Source: a virus (taxonomy: Duplodnaviria > Caudoviricetes). From it: a DNA stretch of 64,000 nucleotides. Numbering within the stretch: position 1 is the first letter of the stretch; each line of letters begins with the position of its first letter. Positions 27,537-59,679 of the stretch are shown one piece after another. Position numbers and translations under genes: made by a program. The notes below the pieces were generated by a model. That model was not told where the DNA came from. It ran no database searches and saw only the letters and a program-made list of their open reading frames with translations. The stretch lies in the IMG/VR virus record IMGVR_UViG_2595698754_000001, positions 3,171 through 67,170 of that record; one strand, 5' to 3'.

Positions 27537-28511
27537 GTGTTTACAGTGACGTTAATAAAGATACGTGGAAATAGAATCAATGTGGACATCGTGTCAGAAC
27601 TACAAGAGCACGAATGGACAAACGCTAGATGGTCAGAAGAAAAGTTAATATGCAACTCACCTTTTAGAGCAGATTCTCACCCGTCATTCTTTGTTAACCT
27701 TGTAAACTTCACAGGGTCAGATGGAGGAGGAACTTGGGGAGACAGTGGTAGTGGTGAAACAGGAAACATAATTTCATTACTTTCACGACTGCGAGATATG
27801 AGTTATGATGAAGTAGCAGATTATCTAGTTGAAACTTACGGACTCAAAAGTGGCGTTCCTAAACTACAGGGAAAACTTTGGAGCAAGGAAGTCACGCCTC
27901 TAACAATTCCATCACAAGTGTTTAGCCCCTATTTGGAATCACGCGGGATTAACAAAGAAATTCAAGAGATGTATGGAACTAGCGAAGAAGACCGCAAAGT
28001 CTATATTCCATGGTATGACCGAAAGAATGATTTGATTGCTTGTAAGATACGTTATACGGATAAAAAGGGATTTGAAACGTTACACAAAGAAGTAGGTATT
28101 ACAAAGAATAATTTATTTGGATTACCACAAGCACTACAGCAGAAGCCTTCTACACTAATAATTGTGGAGAGTGAAATTGATGCTATGTCCGTTCGTGCTA
28201 TTGGATACTGTGCGGTAGCCGTAGGAACTTCCCGATTAACTAAGGTACAACGGGATTCTATTTTATCATTAGGAATTAAACGCCTATTCTTTGCAGGAGA
28301 CAATGATAAAAAGGGAAGAGAATTTAATAAAGCGATGTACAAAAGTTTCGAAGGGTACATGATTGATAGATTTATGGTAGTGTTTCCAGATGAAATAAAA
28401 GATTTTAATGATTATTTAAATGCCTATGATGGATTTCCTAGCTTCCGAAGTCTTGAAACAGATGCAAAATGGAAAAGAATACTTAATGAAATAGGTGAGA
28501 GTACATGGTAA
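27537..28511 (+). CDS. DNA primase (Zn-finger-like plus TOPRIM)
   Basis: CNSPFRADSHPSF; IVESEIDAMS; AGDNDKKG; KDFND. Confidence 0.9.
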   Translation: MFTVTLIKIRGNRINVDIVSELQEHEWTNARWSEEKLICNSPFRADSHPSFFVNLVNFTGSDGGGTWGDSGSGETGNIISLLSRLRDMSYDEVADYLVETYGLKSGVPKLQGKLWSKEVTPLTIPSQVFSPYLESRGINKEIQEMYGTSEEDRKVYIPWYDRKNDLIACKIRYTDKKGFETLHKEVGITKNNLFGLPQALQQKPSTLIIVESEIDAMSVRAIGYCAVAVGTSRLTKVQRDSILSLGIKRLFFAGDNDKKGREFNKAMYKSFEGYMIDRFMVVFPDEIKDFNDYLNAYDGFPSFRSLETDAKWKRILNEIGESTW

Positions 28512-44561: not shown

Positions 44562-45107
44562 ATGAATAAGTTTGAAAAGTTCAGTGATATAAAAGAAAGG
44601 GAATTAAAAGAATATTCCAAGGAGACTAGAAAAGGTAGAAAAAGAGTAAAGAAAGAAGTAATTAGTACCGCAGAAAACACAATCAAAGATTTTTTAATTA
44701 AAGAAGAAAAACGATTACTAGAAGCGGATGTAATTGGAAGAAGATTTTCGGAAGAATTTTCAAGAGAAAGGTTTGTATCTTTGGCAATTTCTGAAAAACT
44801 TCGTGAAGAAGTTCTTAACAAGCTTAATAATCTGTGGGTAGACTTACATCCCGCAACAAAATATAAAGATAATTTCAAAACTACCTTAGGAATATTTGAA
44901 GCTAGAGTTTTTATAGACCATAAAAAATATCCTTTTGTTACTTTAAAAGTTAATTTTTATTCGCCAATAGACGAAGACCTAGTAACTGTTAATTTGGATA
45001 TGAATTGGTACAGAGATGTCAGTGCATCTATTTGCTACGGAAAAGAAGAAAATTTAGAAGTTTCATTTCATCAAAAAGAATATACGCTGTATAGTGATTC
45101 CTTATGA
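44562..45107 (+). CDS. hypothetical protein (paralog of 44026-44547)
   Basis: AGGAGG RBS; shared motifs with the previous gene. Confidence 0.7.
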   Translation: MNKFEKFSDIKERELKEYSKETRKGRKRVKKEVISTAENTIKDFLIKEEKRLLEADVIGRRFSEEFSRERFVSLAISEKLREEVLNKLNNLWVDLHPATKYKDNFKTTLGIFEARVFIDHKKYPFVTLKVNFYSPIDEDLVTVNLDMNWYRDVSASICYGKEENLEVSFHQKEYTLYSDSL

Positions 45108-45409
45108 GTAAGTTTAAAAAGTTTGAACGTGTACAGCATCGTTATAACAATTCTAAGGGAACCATAATGGGTGTTACACAGGGAATGACCGGAATGGTTG
45201 CTTACGAAGTTGATTGGGATGACACAGTAGATGGAGCTATAAGCCATGCAGTTTCTGAGGATATTTTAGAAAGAAGTTCTACGGATACTGTTATGGAAAA
45301 TATTTATAATCAGTCAATGAATACTGAGGAATTTTTTAATGCCTTAGCAGATACTTTTAAAAGAATTTCTGAATTAGAAGAAGATAAAAAGAAAAGCCAG
45401 CGGGATTAA
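45104..45409 (+). CDS. hypothetical protein with SH3/Tudor-like N-terminus
   Basis: KFKKFERV..KGTI..YEVDWD pattern. Confidence 0.6.
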   Translation: MSKFKKFERVQHRYNNSKGTIMGVTQGMTGMVAYEVDWDDTVDGAISHAVSEDILERSSTDTVMENIYNQSMNTEEFFNALADTFKRISELEEDKKKSQRD

Positions 45410-45924
45410 TCCTCTGGCTCTTCGTCTGCTACATACTGCATTGATTTGTATTTAATAATACTTTGGACACCATTGTAGATATTTTTATCAGTTCCACCAC
45501 CAAACTCTTTAGCTACATCTTCTATGGACATACCCTCTTCCCAATATTCTTTACGCATGTAACGTGCCTCTTCATGGGTGAATAACATAGGACGTTGTCC
45601 TTCTCTACCTGCTTTTGCTAAGTTTTCTTGGTAGTTAGTCCATCTTAAATTATCTAAAGAATTATTTTCCGGATTTCCGTCTATATGGTCTACGCAATTC
45701 TTAGTATTTTTTAATTCTTCTGGAATTGGAATGAAAGCCATTGCTAGTATACGGTGCAGTTGTATTGCTACGTGCTTACCTTCAACCATAAAACCAAATT
45801 GCTGGTACTTTTGTGGGTGTTTAGTGCCTTTTAATTCTTTTAGTTTGCTATACTTATTACTTAAAACTTTACCTTCTCTATTTATAAAATAATTTGGAAG
45901 AAATTCCACAAAACCTTCTAACAT
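45406..45924 (-). CDS. HNH homing endonuclease
   Basis: LHRILAMAF..VDHIDGNPENNSLDNLRW; C-terminal HTH. Confidence 0.85.
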   Translation of the reverse strand: MLEGFVEFLPNYFINREGKVLSNKYSKLKELKGTKHPQKYQQFGFMVEGKHVAIQLHRILAMAFIPIPEELKNTKNCVDHIDGNPENNSLDNLRWTNYQENLAKAGREGQRPMLFTHEEARYMRKEYWEEGMSIEDVAKEFGGGTDKNIYNGVQSIIKYKSMQYVADEEPED

Positions 45925-46656
45925 TTTATCACCACCTTTATCATTTTATTATAGCACATTTTAATTATTTTTGATAGCTATTTTTAAAAGTTTTTCCTAC
46001 AAAGTTAAATTCAAAACATAAGTGGGGGTCATTTTTGAAATAATTTTAAAACTTTTTTTTGAAAAAATTAATTTTTTTCTGGGGATTATTTAAATTTTTT
46101 TTCTGGGAAAACTCAAAACCATTGGTACCACTTGTTTCAGAACGTTTTCCGCAATATTTGACAGTTGCAACAATCTGTGTTAAAATTAATTTACAAGTTA
46201 AGGGAATGTTGTCGCAAACATTAGCCAAAACTTGAATACAAATTTCTGCTAAAAATGATGAACACTTTCCCAGCGTTCTGTAAATTAACAGTAAATTGTA
46301 TTGGAAAAACAGTTATAAAATCAGTTTAACTATATCTGATTAGAAAATCCGCCTTTAAAAATTTGAGATACGTTTTCTACTTCGACTACTTAATTGTTTT
46401 CAAGTTCAAATCCGTTCTGTCAACTCAAATTATTTTAGGTGGATTTTTACTTTGAACACATAAATTTGGAGGGGAAATTTTTGGGTGAAATTTACGAGTA
46501 CCTCCGGGGAATTTTCGCCCCTCAGCACGCCCCCGCACCCGGGAAATCACCAGCAAAAAGCTACCGCAGACACCTAAAAAGACGTCGATTTCAGGTACAT
46601 CAATAAAGGTCAAAGTCAGCTTTGGTCAAACTCTTGTCATCCTATTTCCCTCTTTC

Positions 46657-46712
46657 TGTAACAAACTTGTAACACAAAAAAGCTAGACAAACAGAAAAAA
46701 GCGTGCTAAGAT
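46657..46712 (+). promoter_or_regulatory. early promoter with TGTAAC-N5-TGTAAC box
   Basis: Box 46657-46673, 10 bp gap, TAGACA-17-TAAGAT. Confidence 0.8.
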
Positions 46713-46742
46713 TAGCTTATCAATTAAAAGGAGCTGGTTAAA

Positions 46743-46976
46743 ATGACAGCAACAAGCAATTACATTCTATTAAACAGAGCTTCGAACGCTCTATATAATG
46801 TAGTAGACAAAAGCACCTGCGACACACAAACGAAAACGGAATTAAAACAGGCGTTACACGTAATACACCGAGCTATGATGGAGGAAAATGGAGATATACA
46901 AAAACCACTTTCTACTATAGAAAATAAAACGCTCGGAATTAAAGTAATCGAAAACGGAAAGGAAACGATAATATGA
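46743..46976 (+). CDS. early hypothetical protein
   Basis: AAAGGAG RBS behind a boxed promoter. Confidence 0.7.
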   Translation: MTATSNYILLNRASNALYNVVDKSTCDTQTKTELKQALHVIHRAMMEENGDIQKPLSTIENKTLGIKVIENGKETII

Positions 46977-47062
46977 AACAACTTCTATTAAAAGCAATTC
47001 CAAGCTTGACACTTATCGCATTATCTGTTACGATGTTGTTAGTAATCTTATATCAAATGTAG
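46973..47062 (+). CDS. 29-aa hydrophobic peptide (not in ORF track)
   Basis: MKQLLLKAIPSLTLIALSVTMLLVILYQM; AAAGGA RBS; ATGA overlap with the upstream stop. Confidence 0.55.
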   Translation: MKQLLLKAIPSLTLIALSVTMLLVILYQM

Positions 47063-47069
47063 AAAGGAA

Positions 47070-47411
47070 TTGATTCAAATGAAATTAAGACAAGCGACAA
47101 GACAAGAAATTAGAGAAGGAAGGGCATTTGTTGCACCCGATGCACTTTTTGCAGTAACTGAAATTGGTTCATGTGGTGAAGATATTTCAGAAATGGAGTT
47201 AACAGCTTTAGCAGATTTAATAGAACTTACGATTGCGGAATTCAAAAAGGACAAAGCAACTTACGAGGGAATAGGATTATCAACAGAAGAATTTCTAGCT
47301 ATGCTTGGTTATGGAAGTGAAAAAAATAGGTCAGCAAGTGTATTTAAAGTAAGAGAATATTTCGAAAGTCAAAATAGACTAGCTAAGGTTTACAGCAAGC
47401 GAACCAAATAA
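47070..47411 (+). CDS. early hypothetical protein
   Basis: AAAGGA RBS. Confidence 0.65.
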   Translation: MIQMKLRQATRQEIREGRAFVAPDALFAVTEIGSCGEDISEMELTALADLIELTIAEFKKDKATYEGIGLSTEEFLAMLGYGSEKNRSASVFKVREYFESQNRLAKVYSKRTK

Positions 47412-47414
47412 GTT

Positions 47415-47470
47415 TGTAACACAATTGTAACATTAAAATAGTAGACAAACTGAAACGGACGTGTTATAGT
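47415..47470 (+). promoter_or_regulatory. early promoter with TGTAAC-N5-TGTAAC box
   Basis: Box 47415-47431, 10 bp gap, TAGACA-17-TATAGT. Confidence 0.8.
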
Positions 47471-47500
47471 AAAAGAGTAGTAAAGAACAACACAAATTAA

Positions 47501-47794
47501 ATGAGGAGCGTGTTAGAAATGGCAAACAAATTACAAGAAAAGCACTTAAAGAATGGTTTCATTAATCCAGATATGGTAAATCAAAATGAGTCATATTACT
47601 TACAGTCAAGACCTAGTATCTATGGAGGTAGCTTAGTTTATCAATTCATCACAATGGAAGATGGAACAATTTACGAACTTGAAAGCAACACAGCAAGCAC
47701 TGGAGGAATTATAGCAAGATTTCGTTTTGCGGATAACGTGCTTCAACGAGAGATAAAACGCTACACAAAAAAATCTGGGGTAATCCACTATTAA
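47501..47794 (+). CDS. early hypothetical protein
   Basis: True start is probably ATG 47519 after GAGGAG. Confidence 0.65.
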   Translation: MRSVLEMANKLQEKHLKNGFINPDMVNQNESYYLQSRPSIYGGSLVYQFITMEDGTIYELESNTASTGGIIARFRFADNVLQREIKRYTKKSGVIHY

Positions 47795-47809
47795 AGGAGG
47801 AAGAAGAAA

Positions 47810-48103
47810 ATGAGTAAAACTATCGAAGTAGAAAAATTAGCGGTGAAAGATTTTGTATCGGCACAAGTTTGGAGATTGTCAAAGAAAGAGCTAGTAAAAT
47901 ATGTTAGCATGTTAGTTTCAGACCGTCAAGCGTGGTGCGTGCAAAATGTAGGGGCAAAACGTGGTGGACTAATTGAAGCATTCGCAAAATGTACTTATCA
48001 AGATTTCACAACGTACTACAATACTATCACACGGGACAAATTGCGGGAAATCGCTTTTGCTGAATTAGACCTACTTGGAAAAAGAGGAGGTGCCACAATT
48101 TAA
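47810..48103 (+). CDS. early hypothetical protein
   Basis: AAAGGAGG RBS. Confidence 0.7.
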   Translation: MSKTIEVEKLAVKDFVSAQVWRLSKKELVKYVSMLVSDRQAWCVQNVGAKRGGLIEAFAKCTYQDFTTYYNTITRDKLREIAFAELDLLGKRGGATI

Positions 48104-48303
48104 TGCAGAACGTTATTCAATCTCTTTCAATTGGTAAAAATAAGTTCGTGGTAGTTGATTGTCTGGAACTAAGAAGAGCGGTCAAGAACCTATTTAGCTT
48201 GGACGTCACAAGTTTCATGCAAACTTACACGGACAAACAAGCGGAAGCAGTAGCATTCTATCTTAACAAACCAATTCAAAAAGTAACCAAAATCAAATTA
48301 TAG
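48103..48303 (+). CDS. early hypothetical protein
   Basis: AGGAGGTG RBS; TAATG coupling. Confidence 0.65.
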   Translation: MQNVIQSLSIGKNKFVVVDCLELRRAVKNLFSLDVTSFMQTYTDKQAEAVAFYLNKPIQKVTKIKL

Positions 48304-48305
48304 GA

Positions 48306-48662
48306 GTGGTCAAATTGTTTAAAACGGAAGAAACTACTATTAAAGCATTAGAACCAATTTTCGAAGACGTAAAAAGTTATCACAATAAGGCGGAAGTGGC
48401 AGAAAAGAATATTTACAGAGACGGAACCGCTTACAGCACAAAAGTTCTTTACAGCTATAGAACGCCTGTAGCCTCTTTAGTTGATGGAGAATTTTATATT
48501 ACGGCTAATGAAAAGCACCTTACGCCTACATCAATTCGCCACATCAAAGAATTTATGCGACAAAATGGACTTGTAAGTAAATTCCAAAAATTGACAAAAC
48601 AGTTTATACTTGACACACAAACAAGAGCAGATATTTCAGCACTTACTGTAACACATTTGTAA
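48306..48662 (+). CDS. early hypothetical protein
   Basis: LYSYRTPVA..TSIRHI motif typical of small phage proteins. Confidence 0.65.
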   Translation: MVKLFKTEETTIKALEPIFEDVKSYHNKAEVAEKNIYRDGTAYSTKVLYSYRTPVASLVDGEFYITANEKHLTPTSIRHIKEFMRQNGLVSKFQKLTKQFILDTQTRADISALTVTHL

Positions 48663-48702
48663 TATTGTAGGTATTGAATTGTAACAAAGAGCGTGATATA
48701 CT
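48647..48702 (+). promoter_or_regulatory. early promoter of the acrIIA4-like gene, with TGTAAC-N5-TGTAAT box
   Basis: Box 48647-48663, 10 bp gap, TTGAAT-17-TATACT; extra TGTAAC at 48680. Confidence 0.8.
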
Positions 48703-48733
48703 TGGTATATAAATTAAGAGGAGGACGTTAAAA

Positions 48734-49180
48734 ATGAATGAACTTAGAAGCTTAGAAATGAGTATTAATGCAAAGGATTATGCTACACGTTTAGAAAGTG
48801 GAGAAGGTAGTCTGTATATAAGATTTGGTGATAGCGAAGACTATCCAGTTCACGCATCTACTAATAGCACAATCAAAGAAACATTTATCGAACTGTTTAA
48901 AAATGGGTGGAATGGATATGAAGAAGATGAGCAAGAACTTGCGGAAGATATGCAAGAAATTGCACAAGAACTTATCTTGGAAGAGTTAACGGATATTTTC
49001 GAAGAATACGAATTTAGTACTGATGAAATTGACACGGATTTGTTCTCAGGTTTCACTTTTCACGTAGACATGGATAATGATGAAGCAGTATATTTAATGG
49101 ATGCAATTAATGCAACTAAATATTTTGAAGCACGTCCTTCAAGCTGGTATGCTCTTTTAGAGGTAAGCTACTGTGGTTAA
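48734..49180 (+). CDS. acrIIA4: anti-CRISPR AcrIIA4 homolog with acidic C-terminal extension
   Basis: N-terminal ~85 aa align by eye with Listeria AcrIIA4 as recalled (KDY..L, L.IR, FI..FKNGWN..EDE.E...DMQ.I). Confidence 0.8.
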
Positions 49181-49478
49181 GACTAAATTCATGTTGCGTG
49201 ATGTTGTTGACGGGGCTATATTTGAAATAGATGTGAAAGAAGTCCCGTCAACGTGGTCGGTGGTTTGTCAAAAGGATAACAGCATGACAGAATACAAAAG
49301 CTTTACAGCTAACAATATTCAAGAAGCAGTAAAACAGTATAACACAATTTTGGACGAAATGCAAGAAGAAGGGAAGCTTAAGTATCCATTTTGGGTAGAC
49401 TTAATAAGTACATACGAATTACACACAGAAAGTAATGAGCTTATCCAAAACCGTATAGAAGTTCTGGCAGGTTGTTGA
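49173..49478 (+). CDS. early hypothetical protein
   Basis: GAGGT RBS; coupled to the acr gene. Confidence 0.65.
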
Positions 49479-49536
49479 CAAGAGCAAAAAAGTGTGGTAA
49501 AGTTAAAATGAAACTAAATGGAGAGAAGGAATTTTA

Positions 49537-50373
49537 ATGGAGAAGAATGCAGTTTTAAAGGCAGTTGCGACAGGTCTAATTTTTGGAACGCTAATTTTTG
49601 GAGGGGCACAAGTAAACGCAGATGAAAAAATTCCGGAAGTGCACGCTAAAGAAGGAACGTTAATCACGACAGATGGAAAACAGTTATCGAACGATAACGA
49701 CATCTATTACATTGACGGTCAACGAGTAGAAGTAATTTGGGACAAAGAAAGTAATGGTTGTAAAATATTGGACGACACCAAAACAGAAATTAAGAACGGT
49801 GAAGAAGTTCTTACCGATTACGAATGGAATCCCGAAACGATGAAAGAAGTAAATGTAAAAATGAGTCTGGATGAAAAATCTGGCACATGGACTTACGTAG
49901 CAGAGGATGGACAAACTTGGACTTCACCAGACGATTGGACAGCTCCATTTGGAGGAACTGAATTTACTGGCACTATTTCAGTGCTAAAAGATTGTGACAC
50001 GTTTGTGCAAGTGCTGACGTGGGACGAAATTGTTGCACCAGTTAAAGAAGAGCCACAGCAAAAACCGGAACCAGAAAAAGAACCAGTGAAAGAGCCGACT
50101 AAAGAAGAACCACAAAAAGAGGTTGTATCTGAAAATAGTGAGGCTCCTCAGAAAGCTTTAACTGTACAAGAACCCGTTAAACCAAAAGTAAAAGCCGTAG
50201 AAACGTCCTCACAACCTAAAGAAGTTGTACAGGAAGTAAAAGCGAGTGATAGCCATAAAATTCTAGCTAAGACTGGTGACAGTAATAACAAAGTCATGAT
50301 ATTGTTAGGCGTGATATTCGTCTGCTTTGGAATTGGAGCTATTTGTTTGGCACACTTTGAGCCTAAAGAATAA
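49537..50373 (+). CDS. putative sortase-anchored surface protein (signal peptide, Pro/Glu/Lys stalk, LAKTG plus TM)
   Basis: Signal peptide ending VNA-D; KPEPEKEPVKEP stalk; ILAKTGD followed by a hydrophobic helix; own promoter TTGACA-17-TAAAGT. Confidence 0.75.
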   Translation: MEKNAVLKAVATGLIFGTLIFGGAQVNADEKIPEVHAKEGTLITTDGKQLSNDNDIYYIDGQRVEVIWDKESNGCKILDDTKTEIKNGEEVLTDYEWNPETMKEVNVKMSLDEKSGTWTYVAEDGQTWTSPDDWTAPFGGTEFTGTISVLKDCDTFVQVLTWDEIVAPVKEEPQQKPEPEKEPVKEPTKEEPQKEVVSENSEAPQKALTVQEPVKPKVKAVETSSQPKEVVQEVKASDSHKILAKTGDSNNKVMILLGVIFVCFGIGAICLAHFEPKE

Positions 50374-50402
50374 CACGGGGAGCTTTTGACTCCCTTTACA
50401 TA

Positions 50403-50458
50403 TGTAATAATTCTGTAACACAAATTGGCTTGTTTTGTAACACTACCTATGTTATTAT
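50403..50458 (+). promoter_or_regulatory. early promoter with TGTAAT-N5-TGTAAC box
   Basis: Box 50403-50419, 10 bp gap, TTGTTT-17-TATTAT; extra TGTAAC at 50436. Confidence 0.8.
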
Positions 50459-50513
50459 ATAAGAGTAGTAAGGAACACGACAGCTACTACATAAAACTAA
50501 GGAGGATGTTAAA

Positions 50514-50741
50514 ATGAGGGAGCCAATAGACAAAGTAACCAGATTGAGAATTGAAAGAATGGAACTAACCGCAGATATTAAACAGCTAGAAATTGTATAC
50601 ACTTCTATGACAACATTGCACAACGCTTGTGAACCAGAAATAAGCAGAGCTATGGATACTATCTTAGGTAAAATACGGATGTTTAGAAGAGAGCTAGAAC
50701 GCATAAATGAAATTATTGATACTGTGGATGGATTGGCGTGA
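50514..50741 (+). CDS. early coiled-coil hypothetical protein
   Basis: AAGGAGG RBS. Confidence 0.7.
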   Translation: MREPIDKVTRLRIERMELTADIKQLEIVYTSMTTLHNACEPEISRAMDTILGKIRMFRRELERINEIIDTVDGLA

Positions 50742-51097
50742 TTATATTCGACGATGAAATACTAATACACATAAACAGATTTGAAAGCTTTGAGGAGTAT
50801 GCAAGTTATAATACTGATTGCACTAGAAAGGAATTTGATGAACGACTTGAGTTTGGACTACTTCAAGATATTTCACCGTCCTCATATAATGGTGCTTCCG
50901 ATACTACACAATTTCACGAGCTTACAAACAGCAACATTATTGGAGCTATCCACGCAGAGTTACAAGAGTGTAGAAATTATTACACTGATATGTTGTACCC
51001 AGATGAGGAATTGAGTGACAGAGAAATAATATTAGAGATGGTAACAGAGTTAAACATATTCACGCTTGAAGGACACTTATATATTGATTTAGATTAA
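50738..51097 (+). CDS. early acidic hypothetical protein
   Basis: GTGA coupling; Asp/Glu-rich. Confidence 0.65.
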   Translation: MIIFDDEILIHINRFESFEEYASYNTDCTRKEFDERLEFGLLQDISPSSYNGASDTTQFHELTNSNIIGAIHAELQECRNYYTDMLYPDEELSDREIILEMVTELNIFTLEGHLYIDLD

Positions 51098-51194
51098 ATG
51101 AGATAAAAAGCTTGACGGATTGAAAGTGGTGTGTTATAGTTAAAGAGTAGTAAGGCACCACAATACATAACAAAAATTAGGAGGAATAGAGAAG

Positions 51195-51494
51195 ATGAAA
51201 AAATTGATGATGGTATTTGTAGCGTTGGTAGTATTGAGTGTTGGGACTTTGGTGGTAATGTTTAATCAAGTTGAGAATGCGAGTGCAGTATCTGAAAGTA
51301 AAGTAACGCAGGAAATGAAGGAAAAACAGATTGTAAAAGAGTATGGCTTTCCAAATGAAAAACCAATTGACGTTAATATCTACAAAGATAAAGCTGTTAT
51401 TGTGTATGAGGAAGATGTTTTAGTAATCGACACAACTGGAAGCAATGCTTGGGGTTATGATGGAATGAAAGATGGCGTGTGGTTCCAACAATAA
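51195..51494 (+). CDS. small secreted or membrane-anchored protein
   Basis: MKK plus hydrophobic signal; promoter TTGACG-17-TATAGT and AGGAGG RBS. Confidence 0.7.
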   Translation: MKKLMMVFVALVVLSVGTLVVMFNQVENASAVSESKVTQEMKEKQIVKEYGFPNEKPIDVNIYKDKAVIVYEEDVLVIDTTGSNAWGYDGMKDGVWFQQ

Positions 51495-51500
51495 GAAGTA

Positions 51501-51530
51501 AAGGCTCTCCACAGGGAGGGTCTTCTTTTT
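51501..51530 (+). terminator. intrinsic terminator ending the early island
   Basis: GGCTCTCC-ACAG-GGAGGGTC followed by TTCTTTTT. Confidence 0.75.
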
Positions 51531-52565
51531 GGCGTTATGTGTTTGAATATTCAGAATATAGAGAATATGTCTTAAATAGAGAATAGTAAAATGGAGTGAT
51601 TCTAACGCATTTAACTTTGGAAAGGTGGATAAGTGTATGTTAAGTGTTGTATAATCGCACTAGAATTTCCGCACAATTTAACCCCTTAAATATAGGGGGA
51701 CTATTTGGGGACGTGTGAGGGCGTGTTATATCGTGTATAATTACGGGTAATATATGGGTACTTATATGGACGATATGTTGGATAGTAGTATAATAACTGT
51801 GCTAATATGGGTGTATTATAGGGGCTATATATTACAGGTAATTCACCACGATCTATGGCAAATAGGATAAGGTATTTGTGGAGGATAATGGCGGATGAAT
51901 ATGGGGCTATTTGGGGAACATTGTGGGGTACTTGTTTGGAAATGGTTAGGAACTAATATTGGCGTGTTAAAGCGGGTTTATATGAGATAACATGTGTGGC
52001 ATGTTGTGACGTGTTATAGCCATATAATTATATAAGGTATTTAATACTGTTATAGTATATGTATAACAAGTTAAGATATGTTTAGAACCTACCTCTTTAA
52101 CAGTGCTTCACTCGAACACACACGACTACACTGTATGAGAATTTAATATTATCTAAATATAATTATCTATTATTTTATACTCATCTAACAAGTTAACATA
52201 ATGTATGTTATAGGAAGTATAATTAGCTAATCGAATGTAAGCGTTTTATTAGCCCTTATATTAAATAGTACCTGTATCATGTATATCTATGTGTAGTTAC
52301 TGTAGTACACGTGCACACACGCACTCACATGCTAATACATGTAATATAAATAAAGCAAGTGTGCAATACGTGTCGAGCTAACGAGGAGCGAGCGAAAGCG
52401 AGCGAGTAGACTGAGTAGTTAGAGGAGTCGGAAAATTCGGATACGTAGGGGTGTTTAAAAAATTCTGATAATTCTCCGTAGACTATTACAATTTCACGTT
52501 TCCTATTTTCACTGTATGGGTTACGAATAGGGGTACTAAGTAAACCGCCACAGTGTTTAACCTTG

Positions 52566-52607
52566 TCACAACACGCCACAACACGTCCACACTAGCCACA
52601 ACACGCC
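52566..52607. repeat. short repeats CACAACACG (3 copies plus a partial copy)
   Basis: TCACAACACGCCACAACACGTCCACACTAGCCACAACACGCC. Confidence 0.75.
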
Positions 52608-58148: not shown

Positions 58149-59072
58149 TTAAAATGATGTCAACTGTTCTCCCTCGGAAGATAGCTTGCGAATAAATTCA
58201 TCCACCAGTTCAAACCGTCTATCCTTGTCCCAATAGGGTATTCTAAGTATTGGCATGTTGTTATCTTGGGCGAACTGGTTTTTAATGGAGTCACGTTTTT
58301 GTGTTTCTTTAAGACCTATGTCGTCTTTGTCTCCCCAATGCCTTTGGTAATGGTATTCCCCATCGTACTCTATGATGGCGTTTAGTTCTGGTAGGTAGAG
58401 GTCGCATTTTAATAATCCCCTATATTTCATCCCTTCAAATGTTTTCTGGGGTTCAACCTTGTAACCAAGCTTCTCCACGTATTCAACCACCGATTTCTCT
58501 GTTTTACCTGTGGAGCATTTTGGGCAACCTTTTCCACGTTTAATATCATTAGGTGCAACTTTCCATACATGTTTACATGTTTTACATCTGTGTAGTATCT
58601 TAGTAACATTATTTATATACTTGCCTAACACCGCAATATTTGGATTAACTTTTTTAACTTGTTCCATATACTCCTTATGTGTTAACTTTAGGCTACCTAC
58701 CCAACACTTAGGGCAACCTTTTCCACGTTTAATATCAGATGGTCTAGCTTTCCATACATGTTTACATGTTTTACATCTGTGTAGTATCTTAGTAGCATTA
58801 TTTTTATACTTTCCTAATACTTCAATATTTGGATTAACTTTTTTAACTTGTTTAATATATTCATCATGAGTTGGTTTATATTTTCCAGAACATTTTGGAC
58901 AACCACTTCCACTTTTAATATCGTGAGGTCTAGCATTCCATTCATGTTTACATGTTTTACACCTGTGTAATATACTAGTATGATTACCAATATACTTACC
59001 CAATACCTCAACCTTATTATTCTTTTCCATCACTTGCTCCACATATTCCCCCTGCGTTAACTTTCTTACCAA
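58149..59072 (-). CDS. putative homing endonuclease: three Zn-ribbon repeats plus a Vsr/DUF559-like nuclease
   Basis: Three ~63-aa repeats HRCKTCKH.W..P.DIK.G.GCPKC; DLYLPELNAIIEYDGEYH..RDSIKN..ILRIPYW. Confidence 0.85.
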   Translation of the reverse strand: MVRKLTQGEYVEQVMEKNNKVEVLGKYIGNHTSILHRCKTCKHEWNARPHDIKSGSGCPKCSGKYKPTHDEYIKQVKKVNPNIEVLGKYKNNATKILHRCKTCKHVWKARPSDIKRGKGCPKCWVGSLKLTHKEYMEQVKKVNPNIAVLGKYINNVTKILHRCKTCKHVWKVAPNDIKRGKGCPKCSTGKTEKSVVEYVEKLGYKVEPQKTFEGMKYRGLLKCDLYLPELNAIIEYDGEYHYQRHWGDKDDIGLKETQKRDSIKNQFAQDNNMPILRIPYWDKDRRFELVDEFIRKLSSEGEQLTSF

Positions 59073-59283: not shown

Positions 59284-59679
59284 TCAAGTCCGTTTTCCCG
59301 CACATTTTGGACAACCTCGTCCATATTTAATATCTGATGGAGTAATATCCCAAATGTGCGTACATTTTTTACACCTATGTGCTATCTTAGTGTCACTATT
59401 TACATACTCACCTAATACTTCCACATTGATTCCTTTTGCAACAATTTGTGAAACATACTCCTCTTGAGTTAGTCTAACTCCACCAGCACACTTAGGACAT
59501 CCCTGTCCATTTTTAATGCTATTTGGTCTAACACCCCATGTGTGGTTGCACGTTTTACATTTGTGCAGTATTTTTATACTATTACCTAAATAAGTTCCCA
59601 ATACTTCTACCTTACTATTTTTATCCTTAACTTGTTTTACGTATTCTTCATGTGTTAGCTTTCTTTTACCTCTTGGCAA
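59284..59679 (-). CDS. Zn-ribbon repeat protein lacking a nuclease domain
   Basis: Two repeats paralogous to 58149-59072; same upstream AGTAGAAGGAAGGTT leader. Confidence 0.8.
   Translation of the reverse strand: MPRGKRKLTHEEYVKQVKDKNSKVEVLGTYLGNSIKILHKCKTCNHTWGVRPNSIKNGQGCPKCAGGVRLTQEEYVSQIVAKGINVEVLGEYVNSDTKIAHRCKKCTHIWDITPSDIKYGRGCPKCAGKRT

Follow-up and report, generated by a model that had tools for sequence, protein, structure and literature searches.

In Bacillus subtilis, the regulon of the response regulator WalR (YycF/VicR) includes the autolysin genes yocH, lytE, and cwlO. The published WalR consensus is TGTWAH-N5-TGTWAH (PMC4168254; PMC10746227), and a refined consensus for Streptococcus mutans VicR reads TGTWAHA-N4-TGTWAHA (PMC4168254). 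In Staphylococcus aureus, WalR sites located upstream of the -35 element go with activation, and sites located between the -35 and -10 elements go with repression (PMC10746227). The walRK operon of Listeria monocytogenes is essential and upregulates autolysins (PMC4959528), and autolysin genes are described as WalR-activated (PMC4959528; PMC10746227). Lytic phages that contain sites for a host response regulator are already known, such as the Bacillus phages phi29 and Nf, whose early promoters carry Spo0A boxes (PMC2731898). Here, we describe four WalR-type boxes, each placed in front of a promoter (P1 to P4), in a 64,000-nucleotide stretch of phage DNA (the window), which comprises bases 3171-67170 of the 67,170-bp virus record IMGVR_UViG_2595698754_000001. 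The window comes from a virulent Listeria phage of the genus Homburgvirus (P70-like), and positions 46400-51400 match 12 Listeria phage records of this genus (LP-114, LP-037, LP-110, LP-031, and others) with 91-96% identity.

The boxes do not occur at random. A search of the window with the pattern TGTAAY-N5-TGTAAY (TGTAAYNNNNNTGTAAY) gave four matches, all on the + strand and all within 3.8 kb, compared to 0.09 expected, and none of 100 shuffles reached four. The looser pattern TGTWAH-N5-TGTWAH had nine matches (1.46 expected), including boxes 1 and 2 on the opposite strand and three matches elsewhere on the - strand (12180, 19518, and 25798). The geometry of the four sites is fixed (Table 1). 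The end of the box and the -35 hexamer are separated by exactly 10 bp in all four cases, none of the four -35 hexamers is consensus, and every promoter has a 17-bp spacer followed by a TGn-extended -10 of the sigma-A type. An independent scan for consensus promoters recovered three of the four, the -35 of P4 (3 of 6 positions) being under the scan threshold. P3 and P4 have a third TGTAAC within the spacer, immediately 3′ of the -35 and at distances of 22 bp and 33 bp from the second and first hexamers, respectively, and position +22 of box 3 (48669) holds TGTAGG, a 4-of-6 hexamer that retains TGT. An earlier, sequence-only reading of the window had pointed to the four boxes, to their 10-bp distance from non-consensus -35 elements, and to the third hexamer at two of the sites, and each of these observations was reproduced; its attribution of TGTWAH-N5-TGTWAH to WalR also agrees with the two papers that quote this consensus.

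All ten phage hexamers match TGTWAH at six of six positions, and all ten are followed by A, which fits position 7 of the S. mutans VicR refinement. Since both the 5-bp spacers and the 10-bp gaps differ among the four sites, the hexamers are all that the sites have in common. Motif conservation in related phages, which had been proposed as a check, was found in five Homburgvirus genomes, in which none of the 60 hexamer columns varied, compared to 34 of 360 flanking columns (one-sided Fisher test, 0.004, a value that is only indicative because the genomes are related sequences). Boxes are restricted to a subset of the promoters, and the window has some 20 extended -10 promoters with TTGACA, TTGACG, or TTGACT that lack one. 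The sequence-only reading had named two boxless promoters (49475 and 51112) in the island of small + strand genes around the boxes; these are indeed boxless, but its list was incomplete, as two further unboxed promoters (46158 and 47006) bring the number in or beside the island to four.

The same arrangement was found in the chromosomes of Bacilli, which were sampled around a Virgibacillus locus (301 genomes for box counts, and 401 for the box with an extended -10). The strict box occurs 0-15 times per genome, so that four boxes in 67 kb amount to a very high density. The search for box-N{20,40}-TGNTANNNT, in which the last element is the extended -10, yielded 97 places, compared to about 40 for the reversed pattern used as a control (hand tally). 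The gap was 29 bp at 19 places and 30 bp, the gap of the phage promoters, at 13, and this peak of 32 of the 97 places corresponds to about 14 promoter families rather than to 32 independent cases (listed sequences read by eye). A second peak, one helical turn further, was found at 39 bp (9 places) and 40 bp (17 places), and the remaining 17 gap values accounted for 39 places together. Many of the 97 places show three or four in-phase hexamers. Twelve host promoter regions were fetched, and the downstream open reading frame (ORF) was called and Pfam-scanned for nine of them, revealing NlpC/P60 (three), glucosaminidase (two), 3D, an FtsE-like ABC ATPase, SLH only, and DUF3270 (one each); seven of the nine are cell-wall related. 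This gene set is of the kind described for WalR (PMC10746227; PMC4959528).

The motif and the promoter arrangement of the phage thus match those of host cell-wall hydrolase gene promoters across the sampled Bacilli. P1 to P4 resemble WalR regulon promoters in having the same direct repeats upstream of a weak -35, and the distance from box to -10 is the same as in the chromosomal promoters of NlpC/P60, glucosaminidase, and 3D-domain genes. Unlike those promoters, they lie on a virulent phage and precede an anti-CRISPR homologue and small genes of unknown function rather than wall enzyme genes, and WalR binding to them is a prediction. Genome G034 (3.0 Mb) is considered Listeria-like because of its Internalin_N genes (seven matches), being the sole genome of the 401 with this domain, which 14 control genomes lacked. 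In G034, TGTAAC-N5-TGTAAT is followed after 10 bp by a weak -35 (TATTCT), by CGTAAC directly after it, and by TATAAT, and this promoter precedes a gene encoding three DUF348 domains, G5, and NlpC/P60. The hexamers stand at 0, +11, and +33, as they do at P3 and P4, and the same layout was seen in G072, the one other genome sampled from the genus of G034 (n = 2; n = 4 for the family).

The arrangement also recurs in unrelated Firmicutes phages. A scan of viral contigs for the box, 30 bases, and an extended -10 gave at least 116 loci; these counts are a sample that was selected for box and spacing, so that only features outside the selection count as evidence. Among the matches listed (97 distinct sites), a -35 score of at least 4 was obtained for 15 sites at the expected place and for 3 at each control place. 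Additional TGTWAH hexamers at offsets -22, -11, +22, and +33 numbered 4, 7, 11, and 11 (33 in total), compared to 14 over 58 other offsets, and 20 of the listed loci have two or more boxes. In the clear cases, two to four in-phase hexamers end about 10 bp ahead of TTGACA, and a hexamer directly 3′ of the -35 was seen at L109:3336, L043:1995, L081:425, and L062. Five uncultured contigs (G302-G306) contain 2-5 boxes each within a few kb, compared to 0-1 for the reversed-pattern control. One of them, G305, has 85% identity to the Bacillus cereus phage Kirov over 75% of an 8-kb query, and all terminase matches of G302 and G303 were to phages of hosts such as Enterococcus, Geobacillus, Bacillus, Lactococcus, and Clostridium. 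The phages of the clear cases and G302-G306 are all assigned by their sequences to the Firmicutes type. Among cultured phages, Kirov and PBC2 of B. cereus have an extended -10 preceded by four in-phase hexamers (0, 11, 22, and 33), located between divergent genes in a region that looks early, and three in-phase hexamers, with no obvious promoter after them, were found in EF1 and VRE9_4 of Enterococcus.

Variants of the arrangement were observed among the viral loci as well. The contigs L057 and L117 from IMG/VR (local G+C 0.52 and 0.62) have three in-phase TGTAAY hexamers followed by TGgTAGAAT with no -35, and the architecture is therefore also present in contigs of higher G+C. At L128:6271-6330 (Kirov), in PBC2 (L162), and at L081:289, the sequence TTGGCAC-N5-TTGCT stands about 14 bp behind a second WalR-type box. 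This element, kept in three B. cereus-type phages, reads like a sigma-54 (-24/-12) promoter.

We favor, with reasonable though not high confidence, the explanation that phosphorylated host WalR (WalR~P) activates P1 to P4. A host regulator is the most economical binder, because the same motif and distance are found in autolysin promoters, in the Listeria phage, and in unrelated Firmicutes phages with no candidate protein in common. Activation is the likelier sign of the effect, since the sites lie upstream of poor -35 elements, as in the S. aureus rule, and since the autolysin promoters with the same layout belong to the WalR-activated class. In the proposed mechanism, P1 to P4 would be extended -10, sigma-A-type promoters with a deliberately weak -35, each with one WalR dimer site at about -62 to -46, to which P3 and P4 would add a half-site (about -29 to -24) on the same face of the helix. 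WalR~P, abundant in growing, wall-building cells, would bind the direct repeats and recruit or stabilize RNA polymerase in the manner of PhoB/OmpR-family activators. The four accessory operons, one of them headed by an AcrIIA4-type gene, would then be expressed in proportion to host WalRK activity, and the many consensus promoters of the phage would fire regardless. Some accessory genes, including the anti-CRISPR gene, are thus probably tied to host growth. The sequence-only reading had called the promoters early, which is an assumption, and had proposed that the phage borrows a regulator of the OmpR family from its host, WalR being the likeliest. The second part gained comparative support from the cell-wall promoters of Bacilli, from unrelated phages, and from the lack of a phage response regulator; we infer WalR as the binder, its activating role, and a benefit to the phage.

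The repeats might instead be bound by a protein of the phage itself, for instance an activator or repressor made early, their likeness to WalR sites being coincidence or mimicry. Lambda CII, a model for such a protein, binds direct repeats flanking a weak -35. Candidates are numerous, as the island and the - strand gene cluster downstream of it contain 47 small ORFs of unknown function, and small phage DNA-binding proteins often escape Pfam. The statement of the sequence-only reading that no response regulator is encoded was borne out when all 67,170 bp of the record were searched in six frames: neither Trans_reg_C (PF00486) nor Response_reg (PF00072) was found, whereas control genomes gave matches. 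Pfam scans of 92 ORFs revealed no helix-turn-helix or winged-helix family among the families listed, and the only DNA-binding-like proteins seen were two paralogues with tandem treble-clef zinc fingers (DUF4379/CapR; Table 1), which could read tandem repeats. However, the likeness of the three-finger paralogue to contig G304 lies, by eye, in its C-terminal nuclease part, and G303 and G305 gave no match. Sequences common to the window ORFs and G302-G306 were HNH endonucleases, a low-identity stretch of the tape-measure protein, and this nuclease end; ORF 27537-28511 gave one weak match (30% over 109 residues, E = 4e-05). A regulator common to this phage and G302-G306 was rejected at the sensitivity of blastp and phmmer. 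No Trans_reg_C match above threshold was found in G302-G306, and the weak matches in G303 and G305 (13-14 bits, cut-off 26.2) read, by eye, as a kinase/HD-like and a replication-relaxation-like protein. A phage-encoded binder is also hard to reconcile with the occurrence of this motif, at this spacing, ahead of chromosomal cell-wall hydrolase genes and in phages that have no candidate protein in common, and we consider it unlikely. For another host regulator of the OmpR/PhoB family (PhoP, ResD, or a Listeria envelope-stress regulator), it can be said that the family as a whole typically uses direct repeats with an 11-bp period between about -62 and -24. PhoB/PhoP-type promoters, like P1 to P4, have a poor -35, rely on the -10, and contain half-sites with 11-bp phasing that extend to about -24. 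In the Pho regulon of B. subtilis, four TT(A/T/C)ACA repeats span -60 to -20. With the register shifted one base to the right, the phage heptamers give GTAACA, which agrees with the PhoP hexamer at 5 of 6 positions, but all ten hexamers have G where that consensus needs T, and all ten meet the WalR consensus in full. A Pho-box of the B. subtilis PhoP type was rejected, as this register gives GTAA(C/T)A in all ten hexamers. The phage hexamer (TGT...) is WalR-like and not Pho-like (the PhoB consensus is quoted in PMC4168254), and host promoters with the same box drive autolysin-type genes, the class of the WalR regulon, rather than phosphate genes, which makes these other regulators quite improbable as binders.

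WalR could also bind without activating, either repressing P3 and P4 through the half-site in the spacer or being drawn off the autolysin genes by boxes that act as decoys. The former is in line with the repression that goes with sites between the -35 and -10 in S. aureus (PMC10746227), and the sign of the effect at P3 and P4 could be repression because their third hexamer lies in this spacer; however, this hexamer also follows the -35 of the host NlpC/P60 promoter, whose gene class is described as WalR-activated. For the decoy, four strict boxes in the 67-kb phage stand against two in the 3.0-Mb Listeria-like genome G034, and replication would therefore multiply strong sites, although control of promoters, and not mere titration, is suggested by the 10-bp distance to a weak -35 that all four sites keep. 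Binding without activation accordingly has a small likelihood in our estimation. Finally, no regulator might be involved at all, if the boxes were left over from four copies of a single promoter cassette or served as an upstream contact site for RNA polymerase itself. Promoter modules have been copied in the island, the leader sequence AGAGTAGTAARGMAC following the -10 at P2, at P4, and at the unboxed 51112 promoter. However, the 5-bp spacers and 10-bp gaps differ at the four sites; the hexamer columns are invariant in five genomes in which the flanks vary, and the same layout is present in unrelated phages and host promoters. The absence of any regulator is very unlikely.

Several findings weigh against activation by WalR~P or against its wider occurrence. 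Most matches of the viral scan look like chance, with the -35 score reached at 15 of the 97 sites among the matches listed, and only 86 of 194 viral hexamers in this set have A at position 7. The heptamer with this A is not enriched in the Listeria-like genomes G034 (3, compared to 2 in the control) and G072 (2, compared to 1). Many of the host places are orthologous promoters in related genomes, and the label Listeria-like for G034 comes from Internalin_N alone. The Bacillus phage SPR has no box, and the single box of the Geobacillus phage E3 reads as coding sequence and not as a promoter. The 138-kb genome of the Listeria phage LMTA-34 (Pecentumvirus) has no box either, and gene 47510-47794 has a homologue there that is preceded by a consensus promoter lacking the box, so that the box is not needed to express this homologue in Listeria. 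The spacer hexamer of P3 and P4 would, by the S. aureus rule, suggest repression, and a phage DNA-binding protein could be among the small ones that Pfam misses.

Table 1. Positions in the window of the boxes, the promoters, the genes behind them, and the zinc-finger proteins
Feature	Position	Strand	Description
Box 1	46657-46673	+	TGTAAC-aaact-TGTAAC; A after both hexamers
P1	46684-46712	+	TAGACA (46684-46689), 17-bp spacer, TGc-TAAGAT
P1-driven genes	46743-46976; 47079-47411		
Unboxed promoter	47006		TTGACA; between the two P1-driven genes
Box 2	47415-47431	+	TGTAAC-acaat-TGTAAC
P2	47442-47470	+	TAGACA (47442-47447), 17-bp spacer, TGt-TATAGT
P2-driven genes	47510-47794; 47810-48103; 48103-48303; 48315-48662		
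Box 3	48647-48663	+	TGTAAC-acatt-TGTAAT
P3	48674-48702	+	TTGAAT (48674-48679), 17-bp spacer, TGa-TATACT; third hexamer TGTAAC at 48680-48685
P3-driven genes	48734-49180; 49173-49478		First gene (48734-49180, + strand), AcrIIA4 homologue
Unboxed promoter	49475-49503	+	TTGACA, 17 bp, TGg-TAAAGT; ahead of LPXTG-type protein gene 49537-50373 (name from annotation of relatives)
Box 4	50403-50419	+	TGTAAT-aattc-TGTAAC; shortly 3′ of terminator-like hairpin 50378-50394
P4	50430-50458	+	TTGTTT (50430-50435), 17-bp spacer, TGt-TATTAT; third hexamer TGTAAC at 50436-50441
P4-driven genes	50514-50741; 50738-51097		
Unboxed promoter	51112-51140	+	TTGACG, 17 bp, TGt-TATAGT; ahead of 51195-51494
Zinc-finger protein	58149-59072	-	Three tandem treble-clef fingers; weak restriction-endonuclease-like matches at C-terminal end
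Zinc-finger protein	59284-59679	-	Two tandem treble-clef fingers

The first gene behind P3 encodes a protein of 148 residues that matches the Pfam family AcrIIA4 (PF24304) over residues 2-83 (E = 9e-32), confirming the earlier placement of acrIIA4 among the genes with a box promoter. A 65-residue acidic C-terminal extension follows the 83-position Pfam model. The nine other island proteins scanned belong to PHROG families of unknown function or to none, and the label of anti-defense genes, given to the set by the sequence-only reading, therefore holds for this gene only; as a class it did not stand, since one of the ten genes behind P1 to P4 is recognizable. Anti-CRISPR (acr) operons under Aca/AcrIIA1 control have inverted-repeat operators, to which a helix-turn-helix protein from the same operon binds. 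As in those operons, the acr gene of this phage stands behind a dedicated promoter with a putative protein-binding site, but the repeats are direct and the same box also precedes three operons without an acr gene. An acr operator of the Aca/AcrIIA1 type was rejected, the repeats being direct and the island proteins including no helix-turn-helix family.

Other genes of the island show signs of exchange. Positions 47452-47784, at the first gene behind P2, have 66% DNA identity to L011:6902-7256 (LMTA-34), in the early region of Pecentumvirus phages, and weaker matches to this gene were found in Enterococcus phages; it appears to be an exchanged accessory gene. Boxes as a general trait of Listeria phage early promoters were ruled out, as the early region of LMTA-34 has about 20 consensus promoters (TTGACT/TTGACA) and no box. 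The genes at 50514-51097, behind P4, are absent from LP-031, LP-114, LP-037, and LP-110, in which P4 directly drives the homologue of 51195-51494, and this suggests an insertion that carried in a promoter module, the unboxed promoter at 51112. The shared leader AGAGTAGTAARGMAC was found at 47474-47488, 50462-50476, and 51144-51158 (three matches, compared to 0.05 expected) and begins 3-4 bp past the -10 of P2, P4, and the 51112 promoter. It may be a copied promoter or 5′-untranslated-region module, or a conserved RNA element.

The + strand of the window contains structural and replication genes up to about 45.4 kb, followed by the island of about 12 small genes at 46.7-51.5 kb, and a - strand cluster of about 35 small genes (52.3-63.7 kb) converges on the island. 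The C-terminal nuclease-like end that the three-finger protein of this cluster has in common with the uncultured contig G304 gives it the look of a homing-endonuclease-type protein. Ahead of P1, a non-coding stretch of about 800 bp (45925-46743) includes a G+C-rich segment at about 46500-46560, and the near-consensus unboxed promoter at 46158-46186 points into it. A transfer RNA scan of the whole window found none, and an Rfam search of 45000-52600 detected no family, the sole match being a sub-threshold microRNA (26 bits, compared to a gathering score of 60). The stretch could encode an untranslated RNA or serve in packaging or replication.

No description of phage promoters with WalR sites was found in a search of the literature, although the supplementary tables of the WalR chromatin immunoprecipitation sequencing study, which were outside the search, might list prophage sites; in the literature mentioning phage P70, nothing was found on P70 transcription. 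The nearest precedent is that of phi29 and Nf, lytic phages with binding sites for a host response regulator that couple their programme to host physiology. There, Spo0A suppresses the lytic cycle in cells entering sporulation (PMC2731898). In this phage, by contrast, the candidate is an essential sensor of growth and wall state, the effect is likely activation, accessory operons only are concerned, and several unrelated phage lineages have the arrangement.

If WalR is the binder, a virulent phage would read the cell-wall growth sensor of its host to time an anti-CRISPR gene and other accessory genes, and CRISPR evasion would be linked to the growth state of the host. This would be a second case of a lytic phage using a host response regulator, opposite in sign to that of phi29 and Spo0A. 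Since the same architecture is found in phages of Bacillus and probably of Enterococcus, the link between phages and WalR may be general. More tentatively, WalR-box promoters are possibly a convergent, widespread device of Firmicutes phages that wires accessory and counter-defense genes to the one essential two-component system of the host, with putative examples in Listeria Homburgvirus, Kirov, PBC2, relatives of large Enterococcus phages, and several uncultured phages. Expression of the genes would then signal active wall synthesis in the cell. In addition, as the phage multiplies, its copies of strong WalR sites may pull WalR~P off the autolysin genes of the host, and the phages would offer compact, portable WalR-responsive promoters.

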